From positions 1 to 36,170 of the IMG/VR virus record IMGVR_UViG_3300016649_000229: a stretch of 36,170 nucleotides of DNA; one strand, given 5' to 3'. The notes under the pieces are model-generated. The model searched no databases and was not told where the DNA came from. It saw only the letters and a program-made list of their open reading frames with translations. Of this stretch, positions 9,563 through 30,715 are shown piece by piece; the stretch's first letter is position 1; the number at the start of each line of letters is the position of its first letter. Made by a program: the position numbers and the translations under genes. This stretch comes from a virus. Lineage: Duplodnaviria > Caudoviricetes.

Positions 9563-12559
9563 ATGGCTAATATTAGAGTACTAGACAATAAAAGTGGAAA
9601 ACCTGTAGAAGGGGTTACCGTAGATAACTTAAAGAACTATTTCAATAACCCAGCATACTCTATAGATGGAAATTCTTTAATACCCGTAGAGTCTCAAGGT
9701 AAGCAAGATGTAATCCCAGTAAGTCAGTTCAACCCAGACACCATGAAACTTAAGGATTCTAATTATCAAAGTCCTTATGAGAAATACAATAGCGTAAGTG
9801 CGCAAGCTCAAAATATAGGGAGACAAGCGGCCAATGCCTTGACTCTAGGTGGCTATGCTGCAGTGGCAGATAGGTTTAAATCTGATGAAGAGCTTCAAGA
9901 CGCTAAGTTGAGGGAAGCTTTTAACCCTATTTCAACTTTTGTAGGACAAACTTTACCTTATGCTATCCCAGTAGCAGGGGAGGCATTGGGGGCTTTGAAA
10001 GCAGGGACAACTGCTTTAAGGCTAGGGGAAATAGCAGCGGCTGGTATGCAATCAGGTGTTGCTAAGTCTGTAGCTACTGCAGCTATTGATGGCGCAGCCC
10101 AAGGTTTTACTACAGGAATTAACGAAGCTAGTTTAGATAATAATCTAACTAGGGAGAACCTATCAAATGTGCTTTTTAGTACCCTTCTTGGGGGTGGTGC
10201 TGGTGCTGCTGTTGGTGGAGTGGTCGGAGGAATAAGTAAAGCTAGTTCTTTGTACAAAGGGATTGGAGAAAAACTTGGTTCTGGTGAACCGATACCTACA
10301 GGTACAAAGTTTACTGATGATTTAGCTAAATCCCTTGATTCTCACTCTGCAACAGAGACCCAGCTATCACAGAGACAAGCAAACTTACAATCTTTGGCAA
10401 ACTTATCAGAACAAATAGAATTAGGTGCCAAGCAATCTGCAATGGGTATTAATCCATCATCTGACCATGCCGTAAAGTCTGAGTTATTTGCTGGCTTAGC
10501 GGCCAATCCTAAGTTATTAGATGATATTGTTAATGGGAAAATGGATGCACAGCAATTCTTTGACAATGCAACTAGGTACAAGGAGTTATCAAGAAAAGCT
10601 GGACAGCTTCAAGGGATGAGTGAGTCTAACCCTAGAAACATGATAGCCACTCAACTAAATGACGATGTATCTTCAGTTCAAAGCTTAGTTAAAGAATTTA
10701 ACAAGGCAAGTATAGAGCATGAGAAAATTAAGATTGCGGAAAACGTGGAATCTAGGATACCTCAAAACTGGTCTGAGGGTATGTATAATTCCATATACTC
10801 TGCAGATGAGTCTGTACATAATCAATTTCTAAAAACATTGGATTCCTACGCCACAGACCAAGGTGTGTTTAATAGGCTTAAATCTGTTTACCCAAATGCT
10901 TCTTATGAAACTATAGAGTCATTAGTTAAATCGGAAAAGTCTCTATATGATTCTAAGTTACTAGGTTATTTTAAAGCAGGTGTGCTTAAAGAAGGTGCTA
11001 AGCTAGAAAACATCATAGAACCTAAGATTAATGACTTCTATACATACCTTGACCAATCTTTAACTAGTTTAGATAAGGCATGGGCTGATTATAAAGCTAG
11101 TTTACCACTAGGCTCTATGCCAAGTAAAAACGAAGTGGAATTGTACAGAATATTGAAACAGCCATTCTATGACCAAATTAGTAACCCAGAAGCAGCTAAT
11201 TGGTTTAGCAAAGAGGCTATTAGTAGAGCACAAACTAAAAGAATAAGAGCAGAATTAATAGACGCAACTAACGATGTTAAGAAGTTAATAGGTCAAAAAG
11301 GTGGGGATACCATAGACTTAAAGAAACTTGGAAAATTAAGAAGCTTAGGGATGGGGCAAGGTAACCCAGAAGTTGCTAGGCTAGCTCCAGAAGTATTAGG
11401 TAGGTACTCTGATACTGTGAAAGCGTTGATTCCTAAAATGCAAGAAGTATACTCTGAACTTGATGGTGCAAGTCTCAATGAAATAGTAAAAAGAGCTGAT
11501 TCTATAAAACAAAACTTAAACGATATTTACCTTGTAAATAATAAAAGAGTTACAGACCACTGGAAAGCTACAGAAAATGGCGCAAATGCTGCAATAGGAC
11601 ATGGTGTGAGTACTAAGACAAGATTGATTAGGATGGCTCATGACCTAGCAGAAGGGAATATACTTTATGCTAAAATGCAAGGTATAGGATTACTTACTGA
11701 CAAGTTATCAAGCAAAGTACTAGACGCACTTGGTAAATCAAAGACCCCTCAAGAAGTTATTGTCAGAAGAGTCGAAGCACTAAAAGCTATAAGCAAGGGC
11801 AACAAAGGACTAATGGACAAGGTGTCAGAGATAGGGAAAAAATTAGTTACTGTAAAAGCCACTGGACAAGGAGCATTGGCTAGTTCAGTAGCAAACAATT
11901 TACCTTGGTCAGTGAGACACAGAACCGATAAGTCGAGTCACGAGGAACTAAATAAAAAGTACGAAGAAGCAGTAAAAAATGTAAATGACTTGGTAACAAA
12001 GACAGGAGAAAGACTTAATCAGCTAGACGCTCAAATGAAGGGTATTGGTGTACTAGCACCTAATTTATATCAGCAATTGCAACAAGATATTTTACAAAAA
12101 GCTGGGATATTGACTAGGTCTCTTCCTTTACAAAGCCCAACTACCTATGGCAAGTCACCACTGACTATGACCGAGAAAGCTCACTTCATTGACCAGGTGG
12201 AAGCAGGTACTGACCCTCATAAAATGCTAGATTTAATGGGACAAGGTACAATAACACCCAGTCAACTAAGTACCTTCCAATCCGTCTATCCTTATATATT
12301 TTCTAAGTTAAAAGATAGTGCCCTAATGGAAGTAAGTACAAGTAAAAACCCAATTTCCTCGGTTCAAAAAGCTAGGATTTATGGAATATTCGGTATTCCT
12401 ACTTCCCCTGTGGTAAGTGCAGATAACTTAATGAAAGAATTCATGGCACAACAACAAATGAGCCAGCAAGCTCCTAAAACCCAGCAACAACCTCTAAGAA
12501 CTTCAGGTGCTCAAAAAATGAGCTTATCAGAGAATTATCAAAGGTCAGGCAAGCCCTAA
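9563..12559 (+). CDS. Large internal virion / DNA ejection protein
   Basis: ~998 aa, Gly/Ala-rich membrane-like segments in N-terminal quarter, helical remainder; aaggag RBS before ATG 9563. Confidence 0.6.
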   Translation: MANIRVLDNKSGKPVEGVTVDNLKNYFNNPAYSIDGNSLIPVESQGKQDVIPVSQFNPDTMKLKDSNYQSPYEKYNSVSAQAQNIGRQAANALTLGGYAAVADRFKSDEELQDAKLREAFNPISTFVGQTLPYAIPVAGEALGALKAGTTALRLGEIAAAGMQSGVAKSVATAAIDGAAQGFTTGINEASLDNNLTRENLSNVLFSTLLGGGAGAAVGGVVGGISKASSLYKGIGEKLGSGEPIPTGTKFTDDLAKSLDSHSATETQLSQRQANLQSLANLSEQIELGAKQSAMGINPSSDHAVKSELFAGLAANPKLLDDIVNGKMDAQQFFDNATRYKELSRKAGQLQGMSESNPRNMIATQLNDDVSSVQSLVKEFNKASIEHEKIKIAENVESRIPQNWSEGMYNSIYSADESVHNQFLKTLDSYATDQGVFNRLKSVYPNASYETIESLVKSEKSLYDSKLLGYFKAGVLKEGAKLENIIEPKINDFYTYLDQSLTSLDKAWADYKASLPLGSMPSKNEVELYRILKQPFYDQISNPEAANWFSKEAISRAQTKRIRAELIDATNDVKKLIGQKGGDTIDLKKLGKLRSLGMGQGNPEVARLAPEVLGRYSDTVKALIPKMQEVYSELDGASLNEIVKRADSIKQNLNDIYLVNNKRVTDHWKATENGANAAIGHGVSTKTRLIRMAHDLAEGNILYAKMQGIGLLTDKLSSKVLDALGKSKTPQEVIVRRVEALKAISKGNKGLMDKVSEIGKKLVTVKATGQGALASSVANNLPWSVRHRTDKSSHEELNKKYEEAVKNVNDLVTKTGERLNQLDAQMKGIGVLAPNLYQQLQQDILQKAGILTRSLPLQSPTTYGKSPLTMTEKAHFIDQVEAGTDPHKMLDLMGQGTITPSQLSTFQSVYPYIFSKLKDSALMEVSTSKNPISSVQKARIYGIFGIPTSPVVSADNLMKEFMAQQQMSQQAPKTQQQPLRTSGAQKMSLSENYQRSGKP

Positions 12560-12830
12560 GTTACCGCCTCTCAAAATTTTCATGGTTTTGAAACTTTGTA
12601 GACCTCTGTATTCTCTTTTTTTAATTTAATTCTTCAAGGTAGAAAAACATGAGAGGCATGAGAGGCGAGCTTCAAAAACCTTGATTTTAGCTAATAACTT
12701 TAATTTGAACCATGAGAGATTTGCGCTATTTGTTGATAAGAGGTCATGAGAGGTCAAAGTTTTCCTTATTTACCAATATCCAAGTTGTTACCTTAGTTTT
12801 CAAAAAACATTAATTTGATGAGAGGTGACT
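12559..12830. repeat. Iteron-rich element A (inverted copy of 29836-30101); candidate origin or recombination site
   Basis: Matches the reverse complement of 29836-30101 with perfect tracts of ~34, 40 and 30 bp; multiple (T)GAGAGG motifs. Confidence 0.92.
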
Positions 12831-12858
12831 CTAAATGAAAATATTGAAACCCAGTTTG

Positions 12859-12886
12859 CAAAGTACAAAAAACTTACATATAAAAA
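12859..12886 (+). repeat. 28-bp direct repeat, copy 1
   Basis: caaagtacaaaaaacttacatataaaaa identical to 13344-13371; imperfect similarity extends to ~55 bp. Confidence 0.9.
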
Positions 12887-13343
12887 ATTTTCATTTGATT
12901 CCAAAGACGTAGAAGTACAAGTAGATGAACAAGGTAAACCTTGGTTTAAGGCTAACAACGTTTGTAGTTGTTTAGGTTACGAGGGTAATTTTAGAGACGC
13001 TGTTATTAGACATGTGGACACAGAGGACGTCGTGAAACGCGACACCCTTACAAAGGGAGGAGTTCAACAAACTAACTTTGTTAATGAGTCTGGTCTCTAT
13101 TCACTTATCCTAGGTTCTAAGTTAGAAGGTGCTAAGTTTACTGAGAAAAGACATGCTGATGTAATAAGAAGTATAGAAAGTTTGATTAAATCAGGTAAAT
13201 TCTCAGAATCCAATTTTGAATTGTCAACTTATCAAGGTAAGAGAAGGGAGGAAAAGGTTTATATCTTAGATGAGACCTTTACCACAGTGTTGCTGATGGG
13301 TCTTACTGGTGAATACAAAGTAAACTCAGAAAAACCTAATTTT

Positions 13344-13371
13344 CAAAGTACAAAAAACTTACATATAAAAA
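13344..13371 (+). repeat. 28-bp direct repeat, copy 2
   Basis: Identical to 12859-12886. Confidence 0.9.
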
Positions 13372-13410
13372 TTTTTATTAGATTAACTAGTGGCTATAAA
13401 AATCTTTGAT

Positions 13411-13439
13411 TTGACAAAGTTATAGAATTTCAATATAAA
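13411..13439 (+). promoter_or_regulatory. Sigma70-type promoter for rha-helicase-polA
   Basis: TTGACA-17 nt-TATAAA, 62 nt upstream of rha ATG. Confidence 0.8.
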
Positions 13440-13501
13440 AGAAAAGTACCCAGTTACGTGGTGTTAACTGAGTACCAAACAATCTATCATAAGGATATAA
13501 T

Positions 13502-14218
13502 ATGAGTACCATATCATTAGTCTCATTGCAAGTTATTTCTTCCAACTCAGTCCCAGCTACTACAAGTTTAGAAATTGCTAAGTTCACAGGTAAAGAGCAT
13601 AAACACGTCTTAAGAGATATTGAAACCCTTATAGAGTCTCAAAAATTAGATCAGTCCAATTTTGGGCTGATCTCTTACGAAGACTCCTATGGTAGAAAAC
13701 AGAAGGCTTACGTATTAGACGAGACTTTCACAACCGTGTTATTAATGGGTTTCACTGGTGATAAGGCATTAGATTGGAAGCTAGTATATACCAAAGAATT
13801 CCAAGCGATGAGAGAGAATCTTACTAAGCCTAAAGAACAACTTGAGACTACTTTCAATACCTATATGTGCATTGCGGAGAGACTAGGTCTTAAGAATGAG
13901 CAAGCTGCAATCCATGCCAACTACGCTATGAAGAAGTTGCATAACACAGATGTATTAGCTCTCATAGAATACAAAGTAGAAACTAAGGTATCTAAGAGCC
14001 TCACAGACTGGTTACAAGGTACGGGGATATCAGCTAGGAAAGCTAACTTATTACTTTGTGAATATGGTTACTTAGAAGGCACAACTGGCAATTGGAAATT
14101 AGTTGACAAGGGTTCCAAACTTGGTAAAGTAGTATCTCAAGAAGCTAATGGCAAAATGAGATCTAGTATTGAGTGGTACGAGGAAGTAATCGAAGTTGTT
14201 AAGGCACTTAATAGATAG
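13502..14218 (+). CDS. rha: Rha-family phage regulatory protein with antirepressor (KilAC-like) C-terminal domain
   Basis: 'TTSLEIAKFTGKEHKHVLRDIE...LLMGFTGDKALDWKL.Y..EF..M' Rha signature; C-terminal 'ISARKANLLL...GYL'. Confidence 0.88.
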   Translation: MSTISLVSLQVISSNSVPATTSLEIAKFTGKEHKHVLRDIETLIESQKLDQSNFGLISYEDSYGRKQKAYVLDETFTTVLLMGFTGDKALDWKLVYTKEFQAMRENLTKPKEQLETTFNTYMCIAERLGLKNEQAAIHANYAMKKLHNTDVLALIEYKVETKVSKSLTDWLQGTGISARKANLLLCEYGYLEGTTGNWKLVDKGSKLGKVVSQEANGKMRSSIEWYEEVIEVVKALNR

Positions 14219-14224
14219 GTAAAT

Positions 14225-14260
14225 AAAAAACCTCAATGCAGTGTGTGAGTTGCATTGAGG
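14225..14260 (-). terminator. Hairpin between rha and helicase (terminator-like on - strand)
   Basis: cctcaatgca-10 nt-tgcattgagg perfect 10-bp stem preceded by A6. Confidence 0.55.
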
Positions 14261-14303
14261 CAAAGGAGAGTGTGAGTTCACTACTATAAGGAGAGTAATA
14301 CAA

Positions 14304-15893
14304 ATGAGTATCATTAAGCAAGTTGAAGAAGCTACTAATTTCAAATTATCATTATCTAAGAAAAACAATGAGTTAGTCGTAAAGGATTCTAATAACAAAG
14401 TTGTTTCAGAGTCTGTTTACTCATCATTTTTTAAGATTCTAGAAAACCAACTACAAGTATCAGACTTGAAAGGTCAGCTAGTAGGTACCTTAGTCAATAA
14501 GAAAGAGTTTGCCAGATATGCAAATGTAATGAAGTATGACGAAGAGTATATTAAGAAGCAAGAAAATGACCCCTTCGTAGTTACTCATATAGGAAGTCCA
14601 AATAGGGGATATAAACTTGGTTATTACCCTTCTGGCCATTACAAAGTAGGTAAGACTTTTCAATCTATTGACTTTAAAATAAAGCAACTAGGACTGCAGA
14701 AAGATGAGTCCCCTAAGTTTGAAATATTTTATGCTCTTGAATCTTATGACCCGTTTTCTAGTGATGTCATTTACTTGGACAGTAACAAAGAAGACTACTA
14801 TTTAAATATGTACAGACCATCAAAGTATATGGAAATTTACAGAGGTTACTATCCAGATATCGAGTTATTACCTATTAACAGATTTTCTGAGTTACCTGAT
14901 GTATTGCAAGCTTTCTTTATTCACTTGTTACCAGATAAAAAAGACAGGGAATATTTGTTACAATGGCTTGCTTGGTCAGTATTTGAACAATGCGAAACAA
15001 TTCCTATATTATTTGGGTCTGGAGGTACAGGTAAAGGGACTTTGACAGGCCTATGGTCTAGGATGTTAGGAGTTAATAACTGGGCACCAATGAACGCAAG
15101 TTCTCTTGAAGGTGAGTTCTCTATGGCTCACTTTGTAAACAAAAGAGGAATTAGCGTAAACGAAGGGCAGATTACTAGTGCGCAACAAATGGAAAACTTG
15201 AAAAACTCTACTGACAGATACATAAGAGTTAATGATAAAAATGAGAAGTTTAAGACGGTTAAAAAGACACATAGTTTGATGTATACTGCAAATTTACTAG
15301 ACGCTATTAAGGGAATAGCTCCAGAAGGAGAAAGAAGATTTAGTTTCTTAGGTGTGACAAATGAAAAGTTACCATATGCTAAAGTAACATTGCCAAATGG
15401 GGAGGTGGTTGTGTTTGATAAAGAAAATCTAGAAAAGCTTAATCCGTCAAAAGATACAGAGGGTGAGGTACATGAAACAACATTTGCTTTATTTAGTTTC
15501 TTAGCTAACTTATATAATTCCTGTAATTTAGACCCAAGTGTTAAAAACGTTGCGCATAACAATAAGCAAAAAACTAGGGAAGTTAGCGAGGCTAGTGCTC
15601 CTCAGTGGTTCATGGATATCATGGAAGACTTGCTACAAAAATGCGAGTGGAAAGAACACCACTTACAAGACGAGTTTAGTGATTATGTAACTGTGGATGA
15701 AATTATAATGATATTTAGGAATCAAAACCCTAAGCCAAAGATTATTCCAAGTATAGCTTCTATAGTTAAGCAATTTAAAGTCAGAGAGAATATACACAAT
15801 GATGTATTGATTAAGAATGGAAAGACTGCTAGACAGACTAGGTTCTATTTCAAAAAAGACTTGTACAAGTCAGTTATGGGAGGTGGTGAATAA
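14304..15893 (+). CDS. SF3 (D5/NrS-1/DUF5906-like) replicative helicase
   Basis: 'YLLQWLAW', Walker A GSGGTGKGT, Walker B 'ISVNE', motif C 'YTAN', arginine finger 'ERRF'. Confidence 0.85.
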   Translation: MSIIKQVEEATNFKLSLSKKNNELVVKDSNNKVVSESVYSSFFKILENQLQVSDLKGQLVGTLVNKKEFARYANVMKYDEEYIKKQENDPFVVTHIGSPNRGYKLGYYPSGHYKVGKTFQSIDFKIKQLGLQKDESPKFEIFYALESYDPFSSDVIYLDSNKEDYYLNMYRPSKYMEIYRGYYPDIELLPINRFSELPDVLQAFFIHLLPDKKDREYLLQWLAWSVFEQCETIPILFGSGGTGKGTLTGLWSRMLGVNNWAPMNASSLEGEFSMAHFVNKRGISVNEGQITSAQQMENLKNSTDRYIRVNDKNEKFKTVKKTHSLMYTANLLDAIKGIAPEGERRFSFLGVTNEKLPYAKVTLPNGEVVVFDKENLEKLNPSKDTEGEVHETTFALFSFLANLYNSCNLDPSVKNVAHNNKQKTREVSEASAPQWFMDIMEDLLQKCEWKEHHLQDEFSDYVTVDEIIMIFRNQNPKPKIIPSIASIVKQFKVRENIHNDVLIKNGKTARQTRFYFKKDLYKSVMGGGE

Positions 15894-17773
15894 TGCCTAT
15901 CACTTATTTAGACTTTGAATATAAATACGACGAAGTACTAGGTAGATTTAATATTATCTGCTTAGTAGCTGAAAGGAATTCTAGTGTATTTGAAACATTT
16001 GATACAGAAGAAATGAAAACATATTTTTTAGATAAGCAAGATGATCTATTTATTTCTTGGAATGTTAGCGGTGCAGAGGCTAAAGTAATGTGTCAATTAA
16101 TGGGTAGGGACTTTGTACTAGGGACAAATTGGGTTGACCTATGGACTGAGTTTAAGATGTTGTGCCTAACCCATCCAAAGTACTTTTCTCAAAAAACTGG
16201 CCTATTAGCTGGAATAGAAACACTTGGGTTAAAAGACGAATACAAAGCAGACAAGGGAGAAACCCTTAAGATAATATTAGAAAATGACACTTACACAGAG
16301 GAACAAAAGAAAAGTATTATATTTTATTGTAAAGAAGATGTTTTGGTATTATCCAAGATAGCTAAAAAGCTTGGTGAAAAGTTTAAAAAGTACGATGTGA
16401 AATTAGAAGAAAGGATATCTAGGGGTAATCACTGTAGGAATGTGGCAGTGTCCCAATTCTTTGGTAATGGGTTCCCTGTAGATATTGAATTTGTGAATAA
16501 GGTATTTGAGAATAGGGACAAGATTAAAGCTGCTATATCCGACAAGTGCAATGAATTATCTGGGTTTGAGTTATATAAAAAGAATTACAAAGGTAAAAAG
16601 AATGCTAAAGTTTTTACAAAGCATACATTTAACTTTGAAAACTTTGAGATGTACTTAAAAGAAAAGAACTTGCTAAATAGGTGGAAACGTACAGAGGCAG
16701 GGAGATTACAAACTGACGAAGATTACATGAGTGAGATGGTGTCTTCGTATAAAGAAACTTTAGCTCCTTTGTATCATGCTAGAAATAGTTTAAAGCAATT
16801 AAGTTCTACAGACCTTTCTAAATTAATGAGTAGCGAAGGATATATTAAAGGTGACTACTGGCCATTCAATCAAAAGACTTCTAGGACTAGCCCTAAGCCA
16901 GCTTTGGGGTTCCTATTAAATCTTAGCCCATGGCTCCGTATGATGATTAAACCAAAGAAAGGTAGGGCTTTTGTTGGAATAGACTTTAAGAGTCAAGAGG
17001 TATTAGTGGCTGCAGCTCTGGCTAAAGACTATGCAATGCTAGAAGATTATTTAACTGATATCTATATAGGGCAAGCAGTAAAAACTGGATTCTTACCACA
17101 TGGGGCAAATAAAGATACTCATAAGCCACAAAGAACGGCTTTTAAACCTATTGTCTTAGGTACTCAATTTGGAATGCAAGCTAATAGCTTAAGTATTCAT
17201 TTTTACAATTACTGGAAAGATTTAGGGCAAGAAAAGTCTATGGAGAAGTGCTTGATAGACGCTGAAAGATTTTTGATGAAACTTAAGAAAGCCTATTACA
17301 AATATTACAACTACTTAGACAACATGATTATAAAAACAAAGTCTAAAGGTGCTTATAAACTTAGTTCTGGGTATATTTATTTTTGTGACCAGTACACTAG
17401 GCCAACTCAGTTACAAAATGTACCCTGCCAAGGTAATGGTGCAGATATGATGAGGTACGCTTTTGATAGGTGCGTAGAAAATGGAATCAATGTTATCCCC
17501 CTCCACGACGCTTTGTATTTTGAATGCTCAGAATCAGAAGCTATTGAGTTGTCTAAGAAAGTAAGTAAATATATGGTTGACGCAAGTGTCTTTGTACTTG
17601 GTGAGGAATTTGGAAAACATATGAGTACCGAGACACAAATATTTACTAATGACAAACCTTACTATGACCCTCGTGGAGAAGAGATGTATAGAACGGTGTC
17701 AAAAGAATTAGGGTTTTCTTGCCCTGATAAATTCATAAAACCTAAAGAGATTCCTAATATCCACCTTGCCTAG
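15893..17773 (+). CDS. polA: DNA polymerase family A with 3'-5' exonuclease
   Basis: ExoI 'LDFE', ExoIII 'YCKED', motif A 'IDFKSQE', motif B 'RTAFKPIVLGTQFG', motif C 'LHDAL'; TAATG coupling to helicase. Confidence 0.92.
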   Translation: MPITYLDFEYKYDEVLGRFNIICLVAERNSSVFETFDTEEMKTYFLDKQDDLFISWNVSGAEAKVMCQLMGRDFVLGTNWVDLWTEFKMLCLTHPKYFSQKTGLLAGIETLGLKDEYKADKGETLKIILENDTYTEEQKKSIIFYCKEDVLVLSKIAKKLGEKFKKYDVKLEERISRGNHCRNVAVSQFFGNGFPVDIEFVNKVFENRDKIKAAISDKCNELSGFELYKKNYKGKKNAKVFTKHTFNFENFEMYLKEKNLLNRWKRTEAGRLQTDEDYMSEMVSSYKETLAPLYHARNSLKQLSSTDLSKLMSSEGYIKGDYWPFNQKTSRTSPKPALGFLLNLSPWLRMMIKPKKGRAFVGIDFKSQEVLVAAALAKDYAMLEDYLTDIYIGQAVKTGFLPHGANKDTHKPQRTAFKPIVLGTQFGMQANSLSIHFYNYWKDLGQEKSMEKCLIDAERFLMKLKKAYYKYYNYLDNMIIKTKSKGAYKLSSGYIYFCDQYTRPTQLQNVPCQGNGADMMRYAFDRCVENGINVIPLHDALYFECSESEAIELSKKVSKYMVDASVFVLGEEFGKHMSTETQIFTNDKPYYDPRGEEMYRTVSKELGFSCPDKFIKPKEIPNIHLA

Positions 17774-17864
17774 TCTCAACTCATTTGCTAGCCTATCCTT
17801 ATAGAACCTGCCTAAAAAACCTACACCTAGGTTATTAAAATTAAGTTCTCGATGGAGGCTACAA

Positions 17865-18239: not shown

Positions 18240-18248
18240 GGAACAATT

Positions 18249-19930: not shown

Positions 19931-19935
19931 AAAAT

Positions 19936-22291: not shown

Positions 22292-22428
22292 TGCCTTTGA
22301 AGAAAAGTGCGAGTAAAAAGGCTGTAGGTGAGAACATAAAGAAGGAGATAGCGGCAGGTAAGCCTAAAAAGCAAGCTGTGGCTATAGCTTTAGAGACTCA
22401 AAGAAAGGCTAAGAAGTCAAAAAAATAA
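22291..22428 (+). CDS. 45-aa basic protein (not in ORF track)
   Basis: aaggagg RBS, TAATG coupling; MPLKKSASKKAVGENIKKEIAAGKPKKQAVAIALETQRKAKKSKK. Confidence 0.8.
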   Translation: MPLKKSASKKAVGENIKKEIAAGKPKKQAVAIALETQRKAKKSKK

Positions 22429-22457
22429 CCATTAACACGGTGCAAAAAGGAAAGATT

Positions 22458-22724
22458 ATGGCTAGGTCAGATATCGCTAAAGACTTTGTAGAGAAGGGGG
22501 TAAGATTAGATAAACTAAGTTCAAATCATGTTTACACTATCTTAATTATTGCGGCGTTTGGGTCACTAAGTTATTATTGTATTAGTTCTTTTTCGGAAGC
22601 AAATGATAAACAAAGAGCACAAATAAATGAGTTAGCTAAGGTGATAAATAACCTAGCGGAGAAAGTAAATTTGTCTAGTGGTTGTAATATAGCTAGGTCA
22701 CTTTCCAATGAGCTTCCCAAGTAA
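22458..22724 (+). CDS. Single-TM coiled-coil protein (holin-like candidate)
   Basis: aagga RBS before ATG 22458; TM 'VYTILIIAAFGSLSYYCI'. Confidence 0.45.
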   Translation: MARSDIAKDFVEKGVRLDKLSSNHVYTILIIAAFGSLSYYCISSFSEANDKQRAQINELAKVINNLAEKVNLSSGCNIARSLSNELPK

Positions 22725-22831
22725 TTTGTCTATCCATAGCAATAACAACATCATTAAGTCTAAAAATATATGTATAAAAATATACCCACCTACAAGTATC
22801 AAAATTCCGTAAATTATGTATTCAAACATTG

Positions 22832-23350
22832 TTATTTCCTTATCATAAACCCAGTTTTAAAAGAATTAACTTTAAAGTTATCCATATCTACACTAGATAT
22901 CCAAGCAAAGTTGTCAGTAATATTTACCTCTGATACTAGTTCATATTTTATAGTAGAACCTGTGAAATTAGAAATAGAAGTATAATCACTAGCAGGTAAC
23001 AGGAACCCGATACCAAGAGTAGGGATATGAACTCTACTTTCCTCAAGATTTTTTTCTTTGGTCGTAGTCTGAGAAACCTCATTAGAAGTAATATTCGTAA
23101 CATCATTTGATTTTGTGCTCTCATCAGTATTTTCATTGATTACTTCCATTATTTTACCTGTGTTGGAATACTTTGTAATAGTCCTATATACAACTTTAAC
23201 TTGAGACTTTGTTTCTTCTTTCTTTGTTTCTTGGTGAGTTTCTTTTTTGTTATCTATTTCTTTGATAACTATTTTATCTTTTTTACTGAGTCTACCAAGA
23301 AAAAAGAACAAAGATAACAAAGAGATTAACCCTATTATCTTTGTTTTCAT
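22832..23350 (-). CDS. Membrane-anchored lysis accessory (spanin-like) protein
   Basis: N-terminal TM, Thr/Lys/Glu-rich linker, beta-rich C-terminus; ATGA-coupled to endolysin. Confidence 0.45.
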   Translation of the reverse strand: MKTKIIGLISLLSLFFFLGRLSKKDKIVIKEIDNKKETHQETKKEETKSQVKVVYRTITKYSNTGKIMEVINENTDESTKSNDVTNITSNEVSQTTTKEKNLEESRVHIPTLGIGFLLPASDYTSISNFTGSTIKYELVSEVNITDNFAWISSVDMDNFKVNSFKTGFMIRK

Positions 23351-23835
23351 ATTATGCGTTCCCCCCTGTATAAAGCCTGTTCTTTCTTTCTCCTACGCAC
23401 AAGGCCGCCTAGTTCTTGACCACCTTGGCAAGTCCAAGTCTTACTAAGGAACTCTCTAGCCGCCTGTGCATAGTCACCACGGATATGGTAATCTAATAAT
23501 TGGCTTTTAGAAAAGTTTCCATATCCTACTTGGTAACAGAATGAAATTAAAGCCCCCAGTTGATAGTCTGTAGTCTTTGCACCATTTAACTTTGACTTAA
23601 TATATTCCTTTCTTTGCAACCAAAGTTCAATAAACATTAGTCTGGCTTCTGTTTCTGTCAGAGGTTTATCATCTATCTTAACCTTGGTGTTATTTGGGTA
23701 ATAAGTCATCCCATATCCAGTTGTGACTATGTTCTTTTCCCTTTCTAAGCTTGTTGCATAGTACGGCTTTGGTTTAAAAGTCTCCTCAGAAATACAGATA
23801 TTGAATCCTTTTTGCTCATTTTCATTCATTATCAT
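23347..23835 (-). CDS. Endolysin, GH24 lysozyme family
   Basis: Catalytic-region 'EE.F..KPY...TTGYG', 'ALISFCYQVG', 'GLVRRRKKE..LY'. Confidence 0.9.
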   Translation of the reverse strand: MIMNENEQKGFNICISEETFKPKPYYATSLEREKNIVTTGYGMTYYPNNTKVKIDDKPLTETEARLMFIELWLQRKEYIKSKLNGAKTTDYQLGALISFCYQVGYGNFSKSQLLDYHIRGDYAQAAREFLSKTWTCQGGQELGGLVRRRKKEQALYRGERII

Positions 23836-24112
23836 TTCTCTCCCCTTTGCGCTTGTTAGAAGACTTTGAACAGTCTATTAATCCTATTGTTTCTATTGCA
23901 ATGTTGTTACCCCAGCTGTCTGGCATATAGACAGGCTCATTATTAACATCCCTGTTTTTACCGTGTTTATCGCAAATTCTATTTCCATTGTACAAACTCA
24001 TAAATACCTGACTACAACGCAAGCAAGTTCTCAGTTTTGTAGTGTCTTTGTACCTAGCAGCTATCATAATGTTTTCTTGACTACCTTTGTATCTATAAGA
24101 ATGATTACCCAT
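23822..24112 (-). CDS. Zinc-finger protein
   Basis: 'RTCLRC...F.S...GNRICDKH'; aaggag RBS. Confidence 0.6.
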   Translation of the reverse strand: MGNHSYRYKGSQENIMIAARYKDTTKLRTCLRCSQVFMSLYNGNRICDKHGKNRDVNNEPVYMPDSWGNNIAIETIGLIDCSKSSNKRKGERNDNE

Positions 24113-24130
24113 GACTCACACTCCTTTTTA

Positions 24131-24355
24131 TTAATTTCTTGGTGGTGATAACTTGTTACAAACTTTCAATACTCTACGTCTACCTGTATCAATTTCTTCT
24201 AAAATATAGAAAAAATGTATAACATCTTTGTTAGCAAAGAATCTTTCTTTTATCAAGCTTTCTGCCTTATCCTCGGCAGCTGTCCTCCCAGTAGCATTAA
24301 AACTATGTTCAAAAATATCAGAATTACTCTCAAATACAACTTTGTATGTTTTCAT
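24131..24355 (-). CDS. Hypothetical protein
   Basis: aaagga RBS, in - strand operon. Confidence 0.6.
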   Translation of the reverse strand: MKTYKVVFESNSDIFEHSFNATGRTAAEDKAESLIKERFFANKDVIHFFYILEEIDTGRRRVLKVCNKLSPPRN

Positions 24356-24386
24356 AGAATCCTTTCTTATTCGTTAATATAGTTTA

Positions 24387-24620
24387 CTAATTCTTTGATT
24401 GAATCGATACTTTGTAATGTAATTGGGTGATATATATATATGCATCCCAGAAATTATCGTTTTTAAGTGTAATATTAAAATACTTGTCATCAAGGTCTCT
24501 GCATATTGTTTTTATTTCGGATATATTTATAAGTACTGTACTTGAATCTACTGGAATATCTATTTTACCCATTGCTTGCCCTTTTAGTCTAGCAGCTAAA
24601 AATTTACTCATTTCTTGCAC
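24387..24620 (-). CDS. Hypothetical protein
   Basis: Fills operon gap; ggag RBS near start. Confidence 0.5.
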   Translation of the reverse strand: MQEMSKFLAARLKGQAMGKIDIPVDSSTVLINISEIKTICRDLDDKYFNITLKNDNFWDAYIYITQLHYKVSIQSKN

Positions 24621-24690
24621 TCCCTTATTAAAATAAGTATTGATATATAGATAACTATTGCACTAACAATAAATAAGCAAGCTAGAGTGT

Positions 24691-25062
24691 TCATTTTTTC
24701 TTTATATCCTGTTTAGTTTTCCTCGAATGACAAGGCTTGCAAAGTACTTGCAATAAACTAGGTACAACATCTAGATACCTTAAGTAATTCAATAATGAGT
24801 TTAAACTATCTACCTCACCTGATTTACAAATAGCTATTACATGGTCTACTTGGATATCACCGTAACTAAAAGTTTTACTGCAACTAGCGCAAATGTGCTT
24901 AGGCATTTGGCTAGTCCAATCTGACGCTCTCGACTCCTTCAATACTTGCTTTCTTATCGGTGAACTTCTAGACCAAATATACCTAGCTTCTTTAGCTAAA
25001 GTTGCGTAGTACTTTTGTTCACTAGACTTAGCTTCTTTAACAGATTTTGTTTTTTTAGTCAT
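24691..25062 (-). CDS. HNH endonuclease
   Basis: 'HICASC...QVDHV...LQVLCKPCHSRKT'. Confidence 0.85.
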   Translation of the reverse strand: MTKKTKSVKEAKSSEQKYYATLAKEARYIWSRSSPIRKQVLKESRASDWTSQMPKHICASCSKTFSYGDIQVDHVIAICKSGEVDSLNSLLNYLRYLDVVPSLLQVLCKPCHSRKTKQDIKKK

Positions 25063-25304
25063 ATTAGTTTATCTTCCTCTCTTTCACCTTGAAGCCATTT
25101 GGTTAAGTCATATATTTTATAGTTATATGAGCCTAAGTTTTCTAGGGTGTATGGGACACCATATTTTTTGCAAGTCTTGGAAACTTGCGCTTTACTATAT
25201 CCAGTAAGTTCTACAATTTCAGTGGCACTATATCTACCATTGAGTTCCGACAAGATTTCTTTTAATGTAGGTTGTAGTTCTCTTTTCTTAGTCATTTTCA
25301 TCAC
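25059..25304 (-). CDS. Helix-turn-helix DNA-binding protein
   Basis: 'YSATEIVELTGYSKAQVSKTCKKYG'. Confidence 0.65.
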   Translation of the reverse strand: MMKMTKKRELQPTLKEILSELNGRYSATEIVELTGYSKAQVSKTCKKYGVPYTLENLGSYNYKIYDLTKWLQGEREEDKLI

Positions 25305-25470
25305 TCCTAATGTTAATTACTATGCGATTATGTACAGCGTCGTACCTAGCGGCCACTGGAATAAAGTTTGCGCCCTCGTCTGCACAATAAAACTCTAATT
25401 CTATTGTAGTGTCGTCAATGATATTCTTATTTTCTTCGTAAACCTTTAATATATCGCTAAGTCTTCTCAT
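25288..25470 (-). CDS. Hypothetical protein
   Basis: aaggag RBS, overlaps both neighbours. Confidence 0.55.
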   Translation of the reverse strand: MRRLSDILKVYEENKNIIDDTTIELEFYCADEGANFIPVAARYDAVHNRIVINIRSDEND

Positions 25471-25813
25471 GGTAAGCTTTCTCCTTTGATTGATAGTAAT
25501 TTTCTACATCTTGAACAAACTTTTCAAAATGTTTATTAATAATCATGCAGTTTGTAGCTATGCAAATATGGTGCGGTGTTCCAGATTCTTGGTCGTATAT
25601 TTCTCCTTTATTTAAAGCAATTGTGTGTCTAGTCAACGAATTAAGAGCTTGTTCTATTAAATTGTCAAAGTTCCTCCAATAATTAGGTTTTCCATCTACA
25701 TCTGGGTATTTAGGTTCAGACTTTTTCATATGTTCTAAAATTTGTTCAATAAAAGTCCAATCTATTACACTAGGTCTAATTTTACCTTGATTCTTTCTTA
25801 TTTCTATTGTCAT
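25457..25813 (-). CDS. dATP/dGTP diphosphohydrolase-domain protein (DUF5664-like)
   Basis: 'K.R......KY.....NY...SLTRH.....GE..DQESG.PH..CIATN' pattern. Confidence 0.7.
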   Translation of the reverse strand: MTIEIRKNQGKIRPSVIDWTFIEQILEHMKKSEPKYPDVDGKPNYWRNFDNLIEQALNSLTRHTIALNKGEIYDQESGTPHHICIATNCMIINKHFEKFVQDVENYYQSKEKAYHEKT

Positions 25814-25826
25814 ATTTTTATTAACC

Positions 25827-26807
25827 TTATTTCAAAGCCCATTGAGGTAAGCTGATTACTTTGCCATATCCCTCACCATCTGTTCTCGCCCATTTACCAG
25901 AATCCTGACAATCTTTAATTTCTTTTAAGATTTCCAATCTCCTAGCTTTGAACCATGCAATTGAATGTGGGTCTAGGTGAAACATACCGCACTCATAGGG
26001 CGGCTCTTTACTTACAAAGAGAAAAAAGAACTTCTTAAACCTAGAATGACCTTCAATCAAATTACCTACTTCTAAGTACTGAGCATGTTGAAATCCATAT
26101 CCAAAGTTACAAATAGACTTTATTACCTCAGTCTCGGAAGCGTCTTGGCAGCTTTTTAAGTCTATAAAGTAATCGTGACCTCTAGCGTCCCCTCTGATAT
26201 TAAGAAACAAGCCAGTGACAGGGCACTGTGCAACCCCAGATATTTCAGGAACAGAGTTTTCAAGTAATGCAGACGCTCGTTTATGAGAGAACACTGATTT
26301 TTGTATAGCTCTCAATGTATCCATTTCTTCTTGCTTTATTACAAAGAATTCTTTGCCATCTTTTAAATATTGACCATCTTTACCTTTGTGTACTATATAC
26401 TTTGTTTCTTTCTTCTTTGATTTTTTCTCTGAGTCAACAGGTTCTAGGCTTGGGATTGGTGTACCAAATTTCTCATCTATCCAATCCTTAAATGCTGTAG
26501 TTCTTTGGTCTAAGTTGCAAACTATTACAGAGTTTTCAAACTTCTCCTGTTCTAATATAGCTAAGTGTATCAAAGTACCCATTAAAAAATTAGGATTACT
26601 TTTGTTAGGTACTGAGCGGACTATATACTTTTGATACCAATTCCATGGTGAATTTTTGTGCCAGTACTTTATTTGGCTTGCACTAATAGCCTTCATGCTA
26701 TGGTGCTGTTCGTTAGAAATTTCTGGTAACCACCTATTGGTGATATCGTTTTCGTAGGGGCTAGTTATCAAGGGAAACGGTGTCTTTGATAAACTTGGGT
26801 GTAGCAT
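25827..26807 (-). CDS. PD-(D/E)XK exonuclease VIII (RecE/DUF3799-like)
   Basis: 'ISASQIK', 'GTLIHLAILE', 'PEIS...RGD...FIDLKS', 'YGFQHAQY', 'FLFVSKEPPY'. Confidence 0.85.
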   Translation of the reverse strand: MLHPSLSKTPFPLITSPYENDITNRWLPEISNEQHHSMKAISASQIKYWHKNSPWNWYQKYIVRSVPNKSNPNFLMGTLIHLAILEQEKFENSVIVCNLDQRTTAFKDWIDEKFGTPIPSLEPVDSEKKSKKKETKYIVHKGKDGQYLKDGKEFFVIKQEEMDTLRAIQKSVFSHKRASALLENSVPEISGVAQCPVTGLFLNIRGDARGHDYFIDLKSCQDASETEVIKSICNFGYGFQHAQYLEVGNLIEGHSRFKKFFFLFVSKEPPYECGMFHLDPHSIAWFKARRLEILKEIKDCQDSGKWARTDGEGYGKVISLPQWALK

Positions 26808-26885
26808 GACTTTCTTCTCTCCTAAGTTAAAAGTGCAATGTAAGCTAGCAACTTGCTAACTTATCATTGAACCCTTAAGGTTCAA

Positions 26886-27404
26886 CTATCCGAAAGGATT
26901 TTCAGATTTAAAGTTATTAGCTTTAACTGGTTCTGAAGTCCTACGAGCAGGTGCAGCGGTTGGTTGTCTAGCAGGTGCTGGTTTCGCTACTTGTTTAGGT
27001 TCCTCTTTAGCACCAACTGCCTTATCGCATAGGTCTAAAATTTCTTGAGTAGGTTCAAAGCTGTCGTCTACTTGCACATCGTATTGAACTATCATTTTAC
27101 CTTTGGCTAAGCCTTTAGTACCTTCAAATCTACCAGTCAAAGTAACTTGAATTCTGTCACCTATTTGGTAATAAGGCATTTGCTCGTCAATGGACTTGCA
27201 AGAAAACACAATCAATGGTGCATAATCTTTGTTTTCGTCTAAGAAAATATAGTGTTGTTTATTGTATTCTTTGCTTGGTGCAGTGAGACCAGCAAATATA
27301 CCTATGAAACTGTCACCAATTTGGTTGTTTTCTCTGCCACCAAATGCTGGGTACCCACCGTTGCCATTGTTTGCTTTTGGTGCTCTGCGTGTAAAATTTG
27401 TCAT
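26886..27404 (-). CDS. Putative single-stranded DNA-binding protein
   Basis: OB-fold-like core ('IGDSFIG.F','IGDRIQVTLTG'), Pro/Ala linker, C-terminal 'NPFG' tail; adjacent to exonuclease. Confidence 0.65.
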   Translation of the reverse strand: MTNFTRRAPKANNGNGGYPAFGGRENNQIGDSFIGIFAGLTAPSKEYNKQHYIFLDENKDYAPLIVFSCKSIDEQMPYYQIGDRIQVTLTGRFEGTKGLAKGKMIVQYDVQVDDSFEPTQEILDLCDKAVGAKEEPKQVAKPAPARQPTAAPARRTSEPVKANNFKSENPFG

Positions 27405-27431
27405 AGTGAAATCTCCTGTGGTTTGTTGTTA

Positions 27432-27599
27432 TTATTTTGACTCGTGATAAGTAGCTATTCCTAATCTAATAAACAATTGTGTCATTTCATTTTGTAACCT
27501 AATGTAGTTCTCTATATCATTTTGTACCCCCTTCAAATCTCTTTGCTCTCGCAACTCATCAAGTTGCTTAATTATTTGTTCTTTGTTAAAGCGTGTCAT
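27432..27599 (-). CDS. 55-aa hypothetical protein (not in ORF track)
   Basis: ATGA overlap with upstream ORF; MTRFNKEQIIKQLDELREQRDL...YHESK fills the gap. Confidence 0.65.
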   Translation of the reverse strand: MTRFNKEQIIKQLDELREQRDLKGVQNDIENYIRLQNEMTQLFIRLGIATYHESK

Positions 27600-27874
27600 T
27601 CTTCATACTCCTCAAATAATTTAATTACTAAGTTTCTAAGATTTTCATCATCTTCAACTAAGTCCTTAAGTGACTTTTCTAACTCTTCTAAGGTTTTGTT
27701 TAACTTTTTTATAGCTGTATCATATTCTTCTACTTTCGCAGCTATTAAAGCAAAACTATGTACACGTTTTCTTAGTTCAATTTCAGCGTCGTAAGTTTGA
27801 GTACCTTTGTAAGTATTTTTACTGAGGTTAGCTAGGAACTGGTCAGCTAAGTGTTTGTTTATCTTAATTTTCAT
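27596..27874 (-). CDS. Coiled-coil hypothetical protein
   Basis: gaggag RBS. Confidence 0.65.
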   Translation of the reverse strand: MKIKINKHLADQFLANLSKNTYKGTQTYDAEIELRKRVHSFALIAAKVEEYDTAIKKLNKTLEELEKSLKDLVEDDENLRNLVIKLFEEYEE

Positions 27875-27886
27875 AGTTTATTCTCC

Positions 27887-28162
27887 TCATTCTTTAACAT
27901 CGATTACTTTGCCCTCTTTGTAACAAAGTGTAGTACTTCGATAATTATAAGCCACTTTTCCACCATTACCATGACAAATACTTTCAAAGCTATTAGGGTT
28001 GTTAGGTGGAATAAGCTTAGGGGGGTCTATAATAATCATTAATACAAAGTCAGCTATTAAAACTACTACTCCAATAATAACCGAATAAGCATTATTAAGT
28101 ACTAAACCTAAAAACATTAGTAAAAAGCTTGCAACAAGTAAGGCTGTTATAAATATTATCAT
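27887..28162 (-). CDS. Two-TM membrane protein
   Basis: Two hydrophobic helices and a C-terminal Cys pair. Confidence 0.6.
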   Translation of the reverse strand: MIIFITALLVASFLLMFLGLVLNNAYSVIIGVVVLIADFVLMIIIDPPKLIPPNNPNSFESICHGNGGKVAYNYRSTTLCYKEGKVIDVKE

Positions 28163-28165
28163 AAC

Positions 28166-28390
28166 TCACCCTTTCTTTTTGAAATCTTTGATAATCTTAG
28201 CGAACCTAGCACTATATACCTTGAACCACGTTTTCTGAGTAGCTGTACGTAGACAATAAACTCTGTAACCTTCGTACTCAGAGTCGCTTAGGCTTAGTAC
28301 CCAGTCTAACCTAGTGTCTTTAGGTATTCTTTGGTCATTAAGTGCTTCAAATAGTTTCTTTAGTTCTGACTTAGTTTTCTTGGTCATCAT
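28166..28390 (-). CDS. Hypothetical protein
   Basis: gaggtg RBS, ATGA coupling. Confidence 0.6.
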   Translation of the reverse strand: MMTKKTKSELKKLFEALNDQRIPKDTRLDWVLSLSDSEYEGYRVYCLRTATQKTWFKVYSARFAKIIKDFKKKG

Positions 28391-28614
28391 ACTGTCACCT
28401 CGTTAAAGTAAGTTACTATCACCTCGTTATCTATGCTTTCTAACTCATACTCCAAAACAACCTTGACCACTAATCTACTAGTATATAAGTTCCCTCTGTA
28501 TATTAAATGGTCATAGTTTCTAGCACACATTGGGAATGAGTTACCGTTATCTAAGGTTATTATGTATCCACTATGCTTCATTTGTAGCGTCCACTTTCCA
28601 TAAAATAGGTTCAT
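28387..28614 (-). CDS. Hypothetical protein
   Basis: Packed early-operon ORF. Confidence 0.55.
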   Translation of the reverse strand: MNLFYGKWTLQMKHSGYIITLDNGNSFPMCARNYDHLIYRGNLYTSRLVVKVVLEYELESIDNEVIVTYFNEVTV

Positions 28615-28813
28615 ACTCTTTAGTGCTTAGCTTGTCTTTGATAGCTATGTTTATTGCACTAATGCGTTTAGAGTAATTATCTAACTGAGATTTATTGTGT
28701 CCTATTAGTTCCTTATCTAAAATGTAATTAATTTCAGCTTGATAGTACTCTCTTGTTTTGTGCAATGTACTTAGGTTAAATGATTTATAATAGTTAATGT
28801 AATTTGTACTCAT
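28571..28813 (-). CDS. Hypothetical protein
   Basis: Likely start ATG 28813 after aaggga. Confidence 0.55.
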   Translation of the reverse strand: MSTNYINYYKSFNLSTLHKTREYYQAEINYILDKELIGHNKSQLDNYSKRISAINIAIKDKLSTKEYEPILWKVDATNEA

Positions 28814-28817
28814 TTTG

Positions 28818-29045
28818 TTATTCCCTTTCATAAATAACTTCGTTACCATAGTCTTCAATGGAATCAAAGCAGCCATCAGTAGTGAATACGTGGCTTATTG
28901 CTATCTTGTTAATCAGAAGATTCTTAGCGTAGTCCTTGACCATACTTTTAAGTACTTTAATGTTCATTGCTCTCATAGTTACTGAAGTGTCGTCACTTAG
29001 GTCAACTATGTACTCATATGAATAGATTCTTTGTATCATTGTCAT
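28818..29045 (-). CDS. Hypothetical protein
   Basis: aggag RBS, ATGA coupling. Confidence 0.6.
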   Translation of the reverse strand: MTMIQRIYSYEYIVDLSDDTSVTMRAMNIKVLKSMVKDYAKNLLINKIAISHVFTTDGCFDSIEDYGNEVIYERE

Positions 29046-29239
29046 ACTACATCTCCTACTTCCAAAGTTATCGAAGTCACCTCAAAAGTATTAGTGTCAT
29101 CGCACTCAGGGCACCAAAGTTCAATTCCTAGCTTACCTTCACTTAGGTGCTTTATACTGCAAACTTCCGCATAATAAGCATTAATCGCACTACCACAAGG
29201 GCAAAGCATGTAATTGTCTAGTTCAATCTTAGTTTTCAT
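29042..29239 (-). CDS. Zinc-ribbon protein, first gene of leftward operon
   Basis: aaggag RBS before ATG 29239; CPC...CPEC. Confidence 0.6.
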   Translation of the reverse strand: MKTKIELDNYMLCPCGSAINAYYAEVCSIKHLSEGKLGIELWCPECDDTNTFEVTSITLEVGDVV

Positions 29240-29292
29240 AGTTACACATACACTCCTTAAGGTTATTAATTCAAACACACACACATAAATCA

Positions 29293-29533
29293 CATTGTAT
29301 CACTAACACATTAGCTCTAAGGTTATCTATGTTAATGTTTAACGTCCAGAACTACTGGACAACCTTGTACTACAATGTTTCAGTGATATCAATGGAATCT
29401 AAGTCCATATATTAGGCTAGTCTCATAGCCATAAGGTCAAACCCTCTGTAGCGTGGTTCCCTTGTGCTTGTCTAAGCTCCATTCGCAGCACTTAGACCCT
29501 CTCGGTTACTTAGAAACCCTATCGAGCTTCCAT
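29293..29533 (-). ncRNA. Candidate structured 5' leader or ncRNA
   Basis: ORF-poor, GC-richer tract just downstream of a promoter, with several stems (gtctaag/cttagac, gtccag/ctggac, cattgatatcact/agtgatacaatg). Confidence 0.35.
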
Positions 29534-29539
29534 ATAATT

Positions 29540-29568
29540 AAAATACCTTAACTTGGTTTCATTGTCAA
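29540..29568 (-). promoter_or_regulatory. Sigma70-type promoter for leftward early operon
   Basis: - strand TTGACA-17 nt-TATTTT. Confidence 0.65.
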
Positions 29569-29835
29569 CTAGTTTTCTAATTATTTTTTGTCACTATGAT
29601 TTTCAGTGTTCTATTTAGATACTGAGAGGCGGGGTACTAGGTTCTGTTACTTTATGAAATTTTATTCCTCTTGTGATACCAACGATAACTAAGAACACGC
29701 AAAAAGTTTCCCTGTTCCAAGTAACATATAAAAATTTGGTAAAATGATAAGTGTTATTTTAAGCTAATAACTAAAATCGTGTAAAAAATATCATTGTGCC
29801 AGTTGAATAAAAAATTTGGTAAAAGTATAAGAAAA

Positions 29836-30101
29836 AGTCACCTCTGACCCATTTTCAATGTTTAAAAACTAAGGTAACAACTTGAGTATTGGTAAATAAG
29901 GAAAACTTTGACCTCTGATGACCTCTTACCGCGGAAAAGTGGCATACCTCTCATGGTTCAAATTAAAGTTATTAGCTAAAATCAAGGAATTTGAAGCTCG
30001 CCTCTCATGCCTCTCATGTTTTTTTACTTCTAAGAATTAAATTAAAAAAAGAGAATTGAGAGACTTTGAAAGATTGGGTCAAAAAGTGAGAGGTGGTGAC
30101 T
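29836..30101. repeat. Iteron-rich element B (inverted copy of 12559-12830); candidate origin, pac or recombination site
   Basis: Reverse complement aligns with element A; CCTCTCA repeats; in the divergent region upstream of terS. Confidence 0.92.
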
Positions 30102-30665: not shown

Positions 30666-30715
30666 ACTCACACAACATAATGGGAGTTATCATAACTGAA
30701 ACTTAGAGGGCTAAG

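Follow-up and report, generated by a model that had tools for sequence, protein, structure and literature searches.

Paired inverted iteron modules, probable twin replication origins, in a circular tailed-phage genome

What use does a phage have for two similar non-coding elements that lie in inverted orientation on nearly opposite sides of its genome? The question is raised by IMG/VR virus record IMGVR_UViG_3300016649_000229 (Duplodnaviria; Caudoviricetes), whose full stretch of 36,170 nucleotides is referred to here as the window. The source is a virus record with direct terminal repeats. Its last 250 bp (35921-36170, plus strand) equal bases 1-250, which gives a circle of 35,920 bp. The window encodes an SU10-like capsid and adaptor, internal virion proteins, a terminase, a lysozyme, a RecE-like nuclease, a superfamily 3 (SF3) helicase and a family A polymerase, and its proteins number 46.

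The two elements had been predicted, from the sequence alone, to be paired origins of replication and/or the ends of an invertible segment. The first half of this original prediction is supported by the anatomy of the elements, by a winged-helix tail predicted for the helicase and by matched pairs in three of 12 related records. The second half, a flip-flop genome in the manner of the yeast 2-micron plasmid, found no support as the purpose of the pair. The modules are real, they are kept in part of the phage group, and they are probably twin origins.

Position and build of the two modules

The left module (12559-12830, plus strand) lies within the run of virion genes, directly after the gene for a 999-residue ejection protein. 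The right module (29836-30101, minus strand) lies upstream of the small terminase gene, between the divergent early and late genes. Alignment confirms the two inverted, non-coding elements of about 270 bp that had been described: the left copy (12558-12830) and the reverse complement of the right copy are identical in 226 of 276 columns (82%). The BLAST core of this match (12604-12830 versus 30062-29836) has 86.5% identity, with an E value of 2e-72 and a score of 268 bits, whereas the best score in 20 shuffled genomes was 50 bits. The copies share perfect tracts of 25, 34, 40, 30 and 20 bp. The longest (12679-12718, equal to the reverse complement of 29948-29987) and those of 34 and 30 bp had already been noticed; the other two are additional.

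The copies divide the circle into arcs of 17,273 and 18,647 bp, the near-half split that had been claimed. The predicted gene layout, with head, tail and ejection genes outside and replication, fiber, lysis and early genes inside, likewise matches our annotation. Together the modules occupy two of the three gaps of at least 180 bp in the window that are free of open reading frames (ORFs). A misassembled copy had been named as a possible refutation. A single contig of run X5, which belongs to the study of the possible source run, crosses the right copy, from outer to inner flank, arranged as in the window, which argues against misassembly of this copy.

The repeat anatomy had gone unmentioned. 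Nine of the 11 TGAGAGG words of the window fall inside the two modules. Each module, read in its own direction, consists of a reversed repeat, a T/A-rich core, two TGAGAGG words 9 bp apart, and four more repeats that are exact or have one mismatch. In the left module, the reversed iteron is at 12567, the T/A-rich core at about 12605-12647, the tandem iterons at 12650 and 12659, and the further iterons at 12713, 12737, 12747 and 12819. In the right module, reversed iterons are at 30087 and about 30057, the T/A-rich core is at about 30020-30056, the tandem iterons are at 30010 and 30001, and the further iterons are at 29947, about 29922, 29912 and 29841. The distance from reversed repeat to tandem pair is 83 bp in one copy and 77 bp in the other.

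Paired modules in related phages and their helicases

Searches with the helicase, terminase and polymerase yielded 12 non-redundant related records of at least 31 kb, which were tested for a module pair. Seven fragments (G006, G007, G021, G023, L024, L033 and L034), which cannot show both sites, and G005, which is the same phage as G004, were kept outside this count. The three records with a matched pair are G001, G004 and G012, each with its own repeat. The copies are inverted in the window and G001 and direct in G004 and G012. Paired 7-mer clusters like those of the window, G001 and G004 appeared in none of 30 shuffles of each of these genomes. According to the original prediction, relatives carrying one copy only would have spoken for a one-off duplication; the closest relative, G001, has two.

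The G001 helicase is 54% identical to that of the window. Its two inverted copies, which carry the repeat CAAGAGA, have 69% identity and no perfect tract above 14 bp, and the distances from reversed repeat to tandem pair are 83 and 80 bp, versus 83 and 77 bp in the window. One copy precedes the small terminase gene, as in the window, and the other lies between two ejection genes, one gene earlier than its counterpart in the window. A gapped pattern built from the G001 modules matched just these two places in a viral collection. In G004, whose virion genes are of another type, two direct copies (repeat ACTGTGA, 66% identical) lie 12.8 kb apart. G012, with a polymerase of 33% identity, has two direct copies that are 84% identical and 18.7 kb apart, one right before the helicase gene and one beside the capsid gene. 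Its module is partly self-complementary, and the best fit is the direct one (94% versus 69%). The two most AT-rich 40-mers of the G004 genome sit in its copies, and the same holds for G012.

The site of the right module, before the small terminase gene, is also occupied in G001, G004, G006 and G007. The second copy interrupts virion genes in every paired genome, at four different junctions in the four genomes, and the spacing amounts to 48, 39, 28 and 48% of the circle. Spacing leans toward opposite sides of the circle, and four cases confined to virion-gene junctions prove little.

Which gene does the repeat follow? G004 and the fragments G006 and G007 have one repeat and build in common, with 69% identity among the helicases (60% for the tails); the virion genes of G006 and G007 resemble those of the window and are unlike those of G004. 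G001 and G004 have polymerases that are 78% identical and helicases of about 20% identity, and they differ in repeat and build. Because helicase and repeat are shared in the first comparison and both differ, in spite of a shared polymerase, in the second, the repeat type, judged from these two comparisons, goes with the helicase lineage and not with the polymerase or the virion genes.

The predicted iteron-reading initiator is a 529-residue SF3 helicase (DUF5906, P4/D5-type; 14304-15893, plus strand) in which no prim-pol domain was detected. It matches DUF5906 with an E value of 3.6e-13 and TIGR01613 below the cut-off, and the PHROG label "DNA primase" spans its ATPase part only. The structural model has a mean predicted local distance difference test (pLDDT) score of 70. 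Its residues 145-517 align only to the C-terminal region of NrS-1, a region without the prim-pol domain (Z 9.1, root-mean-square deviation (rmsd) 8.6, 231 residues aligned). Residues from about 421 to 527 match ORC1/Cdc6 winged helices (Z about 7, rmsd 3.6-3.9, about 90 residues aligned), a middling match accompanied by many other winged-helix rows, and the tail is predicted to be a C-terminal winged helix. Neither a tblastn search of cultured phages nor an alignment search of metagenome contigs gave a match to the helicase.

The adjoining gene (15893-17773, plus strand) encodes a family A DNA polymerase of 626 residues, whose N-terminal domain is of the proofreading type and whose model has a pLDDT of 91. 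The best Foldseek matches are Aquifex Pol I and the apicoplast polymerase, with Taq and Bacillus Pol I nearly equal and identities of 17-19%. At the motif B3 position the enzyme has Leu422, which is invariant in 31 aligned homologs and which we take to be equivalent to position 762 of Pol I in motif B. The Aquificae/apicoplast-like PolA group (Hot Spring clusters) keeps Phe at motif B3 (PMC10201439). Among cultured phages the polymerase matched only Silvanigrella phage CP017838, over 112 residues, which is too weak to name a host. An alignment search of genome contigs gave one 15-residue match, which was set aside.

No primase family was found among the 46 window proteins, nor among 133 selected proteins of five relatives, a set of ORFs of at least 105 residues from which many virion genes were left out. 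Six-frame searches with three primase profiles matched none of five records each, although a primase too divergent for these profiles could have escaped. The protein atlas offered no primase lead for residues 1-200 of the helicase.

Proposed use and competing explanations

We consider it fairly likely that the two inverted modules are two copies of the phage replication origin, read by the phage's own SF3 helicase. The winged-helix tail of this helicase would bind the TGAGAGG repeats in each module; loaded to either side of the T/A-rich core, the helicase would open it, and the family A polymerase would extend the forks started at the modules. Most likely, each copy works in both directions and both can fire, because the full anatomy is kept in both, the repeats on the two sides of the core face opposite ways, and the genomes differ in the orientation of their copies. 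Two firing copies would roughly halve the stretch covered per fork. As the searches gave no phage primase, the host would have to supply the primers, through its primase or as RNA polymerase transcripts; this is the least certain step. The inverted layout would be a by-product of the placement of the second copy. It would permit occasional recombination between the copies, as in a one-way exchange in one strain and probably in a move of the helicase-polymerase genes (both described below).

A bolder version, to which we give a rather low chance, is that the group forms a phage family without primase and without lagging-strand synthesis. A self-loading SF3 helicase and a family A polymerase would then start from two full origins on opposite sides of the circle, converging strand-displacing forks would finish each other's displaced strands, and the paired origins would also be recombination points that move the helicase-polymerase genes between sites.

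Several observations weigh against twin origins read by the helicase. The pair test was negative or unclear in nine of the 12 records (G008, G009, G011, G016, G017, G018, G019, G024 and L005), and G008, G009 and G016 have no detected pair though their polymerases are 46-51% identical to that of the window; two recognizable copies are therefore not universal. The G012 pair was detected by alignment and missed by the 7-mer test. GC skew, which had been suggested as a check, lends no support to origins: raw skew tracks gene direction, skew at four-fold degenerate sites carries no origin signature, and just right of the right copy the latter is -0.32 +/- 0.10, opposite to the expected sign. Neither copy has a strict consensus box for integration host factor (IHF) or DnaA. 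The helicase model is poor over the ATPase (pLDDT below 50 for residues 258-350). Finally, the small terminase weakly follows the same split as the helicase (46% identity between G004 and G006 versus 31-38%) and is a partial confounder.

The main alternative to twin origins keeps the same binding sites and makes the second one a fork barrier, an arrangement that we regard as possible but doubtful. One copy would fire, helicase at the other would stall the fork, and the RecE-like nuclease would switch replication to concatemers, all of which is a variant of helicase-read origins and compatible with them. Bacillus phage SPP1 is the precedent: its two alike origins lie 12-13 kb apart, oriR sits in a segment that interrupts late genes, and a stall model has been published (PMC6316719, PMC3485210). 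The nuclease, a RecE/exonuclease VIII-like protein (DUF3799; 25827-26807, minus strand), is present in the window and in all six relatives checked (G001, G004, G008, G009, G012 and L005). However, the T/A-rich core and opposed repeats are kept in both copies, a polar barrier should have fixed the orientation and yet two pairs are inverted and two direct, and no annealing recombinase or resolvase family was assigned among the window proteins.

Clearly less probable are strand-specific origins, in which each inverted copy would start one strand continuously and strand-displacing forks would converge. This would be a stretched form of the IncQ plasmid RSF1010, where ssiA and ssiB are two oppositely oriented start sites with possible strand-displacement synthesis; these sites lie together in one oriV and a plasmid primase is used (PMC6925257). 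The failure to detect a primase in the window or its relatives would suit this scheme, as would the inverted copies, in the same direction relative to genes, of both phages of the window's helicase lineage. But G004 and G012, also without a detected primase, have direct pairs, the left copy, unlike the hairpin priming sites of IncQ plasmids, forms no stable DNA hairpin on either strand (fold z -0.9), and the skew signature is missing.

It is about equally improbable that the repeats are packaging or regulatory sites, read by the small terminase or a transcription regulator instead of the helicase. In the window, G001, G004, G006 and G007, the small terminase gene does have a copy just upstream, Rha/AntA genes adjoin the second copy in the window and G001, and genes of helix-turn-helix (HTH) type follow the first copy in G001, G004 and G006. 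Against this, the copies of G012 lie before the helicase gene and beside the capsid gene, not before the terminase gene, and nothing in the window matches the HTH-like genes, whose identity is only 29% between phages that share a repeat. A slightly smaller chance goes to a one-off duplication, by which an origin was copied along with moving helicase-polymerase genes and one copy is now an idle relic. Identity between the copies is indeed higher in the window (82%) than the 66-69% of G001 and G004, and the helicase-polymerase genes, which stand behind the left copy in the window, come after the copy that precedes the terminase gene in G001, G004, G006 and G007. Yet G001 and G004 retain repeats and spacing in both copies though the DNA between them has diverged, and the second copy of G001 has no replication genes beside it.

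The flip-flop genome seems to us the least probable of these readings, and a distinctly unlikely one. In the yeast 2-micron plasmid, inverted repeats acted on by Flp divide the circle nearly in half, and the window resembles it in having an inverted pair that does the same. Perfect tracts of up to 40 bp in the window, and of about 105 bp in the strain of runs X2 and X3, would favor inversion of the 17-kb segment, and two inversions, one of them between the copies, could turn a G001-like gene order into that of the window. The window copies, however, are imperfect. The original prediction had recognized no site-specific recombinase, and searches for tyrosine (Phage_integrase, PF00589) and serine (Resolvase, PF00239) recombinases bear this out, each with no match in five records. 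No strand-changing joint at the elements is listed in seven runs, although contigs break at the 40-bp tract and a rare second isomer could escape. Because no recombinase was found, two of the four pairs are direct and no perfect tract between the G001 copies exceeds 14 bp, inversion, as far as these sequences tell, is not the reason that the pair is kept.

Recombination between the copies nevertheless seems to occur. The left copy has a divergent spacer (12719-12736, plus strand). In runs X2 and X3, whose study is not that of the possible source, a contig with the inner arm and flank of the right copy runs into this left-type spacer, and the left inner arm joins the same spacer. With 71% and 85% of the two runs read, the depth computed for the spacer bin was 20.0 and 48.6, versus 20.3 and 48.7 seen, which leaves no room for a right-type spacer; run X4, from the same study, has kept it. 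This reads as a one-way, non-reciprocal sequence exchange between the copies, and about 105 bp are therefore identical between them in the X2/X3 strain. Its lack of reciprocity is a further point against a flip-flop.

Gene order tells of a second kind of event. Helicase and polymerase genes follow the pre-terminase module in G001, G004, G006 and G007. In the window they come after the left module, within the run of virion genes, where they separate two genes that are adjacent in G001; in G009 they lie between homologs of the genes that flank the second module of G004. On the evidence of gene order, two lineages thus share a move of the helicase-polymerase genes to the second site, either by inversion between the copies or by duplication followed by loss.

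Among known systems, phage P4 has two distant, iteron-sharing sites, ori1 and crr, that are read by the alpha protein. Its second site, crr, is needed in cis and is not itself an origin; the two sites are not built alike, and a primase is part of alpha. The window resembles P4 in its two distant sites with shared iterons and its P4-family helicase, and differs in that its two sites have the same build.

The closest anatomy is that of the origin of staphylococcal pathogenicity islands (SaPIs). It is about 300 bp long, with opposed iterons around an AT-rich center that are bound by the C-terminal winged helix of the helicase, and SaPI helicases (Rep1 / PriRep5) load without help (PMC9371898; bioRxiv 10.64898/2026.10.17.759575). 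The window modules are alike in size, in short iterons opposed around an AT-rich center, and in the association with an SF3 helicase whose C-terminal tail is predicted to be a winged helix. The right copy reaches the minimum of two iterons per side given in PMC9371898, whereas the left has one reversed repeat within one mismatch. The origin of SaPIs is a single one, placed directly downstream of rep, and a primase gene lies beside rep or is fused to it. The window has two modules, upstream of or far from the helicase gene, which is directly followed by polA and not by a module; its repeats are 7 bp long, and one side has no more than one or two of them. No primase was detected.

The closest layout is that of SPP1 oriL and oriR (PMC6316719, PMC3485210): two similarly built sites, made up of direct repeats with an unwinding region rich in AT, far apart on a circle of about 40 kb, with the second origin interrupting late genes along with extra genes, and a 5'-3' exonuclease encoded. 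In SPP1, origin binding is the task of a separate protein, next to a loader and a DnaB-type helicase, and the polymerases and primase are those of the host. The window, in contrast, has a single SF3 helicase as predicted reader and its own family A polymerase; no families of a separate initiator, loader or DnaB-type helicase of the SPP1 type are among the 46 window proteins. Moreover, neither of its copies lies within a gene, and they are 82% identical and inverted. Since the SPP1 initiator set and the SaPI primase are lacking, the window modules are members of neither type. What is new beside known paired origins is the absence of a detected primase and the signs of recombination between copies. 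In the open-access literature we found no paper on this phage group, nor on a phage that has two origins and no primase or that forms isomers.

The reason for a second origin in phages such as SPP1 has been the subject of models, but in few systems. The present group is a small test set, in which three repeats go with three helicase tails, copies stand in either orientation and the phage contributes no more than two enzymes. From it one could learn if the second origin is there to fire, to block or to assist, and where a phage with its own polymerase and no recognizable primase obtains its primers. The three helicase-repeat pairs would also help to define how a winged-helix tail reads its repeat.

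Neighboring genes and minor observations

The right module is 100 bp from the probable small terminase gene (30201-30665, plus strand), named by its position before terL, as it has no family match. Contig depth from the right module onward (29994-31100) is above that of the inner contigs (11200-29800): 10-12 versus 8 in run X1, 58 versus 41-44 in X3 and 10.8 versus 7-8 in X4. Packaging that begins near the right module would fit such a step; contig depth is too coarse to serve as proof.

TTGACA words had been predicted to mark promoters near both elements. They are present at 13411 (plus strand) and 29568 (minus strand), giving promoter-like sites ahead of rha-helicase-polA (13411-13439, plus strand) and ahead of the early genes (29540-29568, minus strand; a 10 of 12 match). 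Because a promoter scan lists only the second, and found four sites versus 3.2 expected in each region, both promoters are plausible candidates.

Next to the left module, a Bro-N/Rha hybrid ORF (12825-13409) lies between 54-bp direct repeats at 12847-12900 and 13332-13384, and the stretch 12847-13384 (plus strand) is likely an optional insert. The contig depth of this ORF is 20.7 versus about 99 for its neighbors in run X2, and 9.1 versus 44 in X3, which, coarse as contig depth is, suggests that only part of the population carries the insert. A Rha-family regulator gene follows (13502-14218, plus strand). Rha/AntA genes occur in one to three or more copies in the group, change places, stand in either orientation and are often beside a module, much like mobile cassettes (G001 16011-17328, 23878-24651 and 31416-32168; G004 23817-24533; G009 5911-6564 and 44050-44670).

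The original prediction had also proposed a RecE-like exonuclease together with a single-stranded DNA-binding (SSB) protein. The nuclease part stands through its DUF3799 match. The adjoining 172-residue protein (26886-27404, minus strand), kept in relatives, may be SSB-like; a protein atlas search gave it no family.

An IHF-like motif, not counted here, fits only when the consensus is relaxed after the data were seen. The RNA fold of the right copy, one of three folds tried and not used as evidence, has a z of -2.1, and an Rfam search gave no match, with no RNA holder listed. A search with the tandem-repeat word gave three unrelated viral records, two of which were checked and have no common gene set. 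The 10-bp word TTATCGTTGG occurs once per genome, in or beside an origin-like region, in the window (29679-29688, minus strand), G006 (15041) and G009 (6999), and is missing from G001, G004 and G012.

Among records outside the three pairs, G009 has an AT-rich gap before the helicase gene and a long gap before the terminase gene; a match between the gaps could not be shown. A G019 hit was rejected as a pair, since its two repeat runs are 2 kb apart and of another build. An inverted repeat in L005 (CP017838.1, 34326-37986) was set aside as a different thing: it is 268 bp long, 95% identical, and flanks a tyrosine integrase gene and a 615-residue gene without family. L005 also has an exact duplication of 3,258 bp (22520-25777 = 31582-34839), which may reflect isomers or misassembly, and encodes a DUF5906 helicase, a family A polymerase and its RecE-like nuclease.

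One set of early genes and polymerase occurs with two virion modules that are unrelated, SU10-like with a short tail (window, G001 and G006) and Dit/baseplate-type (G004 and G009), and also with two helicase lineages of about 20% identity. The polymerase gene of G001 (34394-37024) is split at about residue 425 by an HNH gene, possibly an intron, and that of G007 (2876-5503) is split at the same place. G011 starts with a tandem array of about 15-17 short repeats (1-605). In G012, a tRNA-like sequence, judged by eye, directly follows the second module (about 4160-4235), and in G008 (143-8268) eight ankyrin-repeat genes stand in a row next to ribonucleotide reductase and thymidylate genes.

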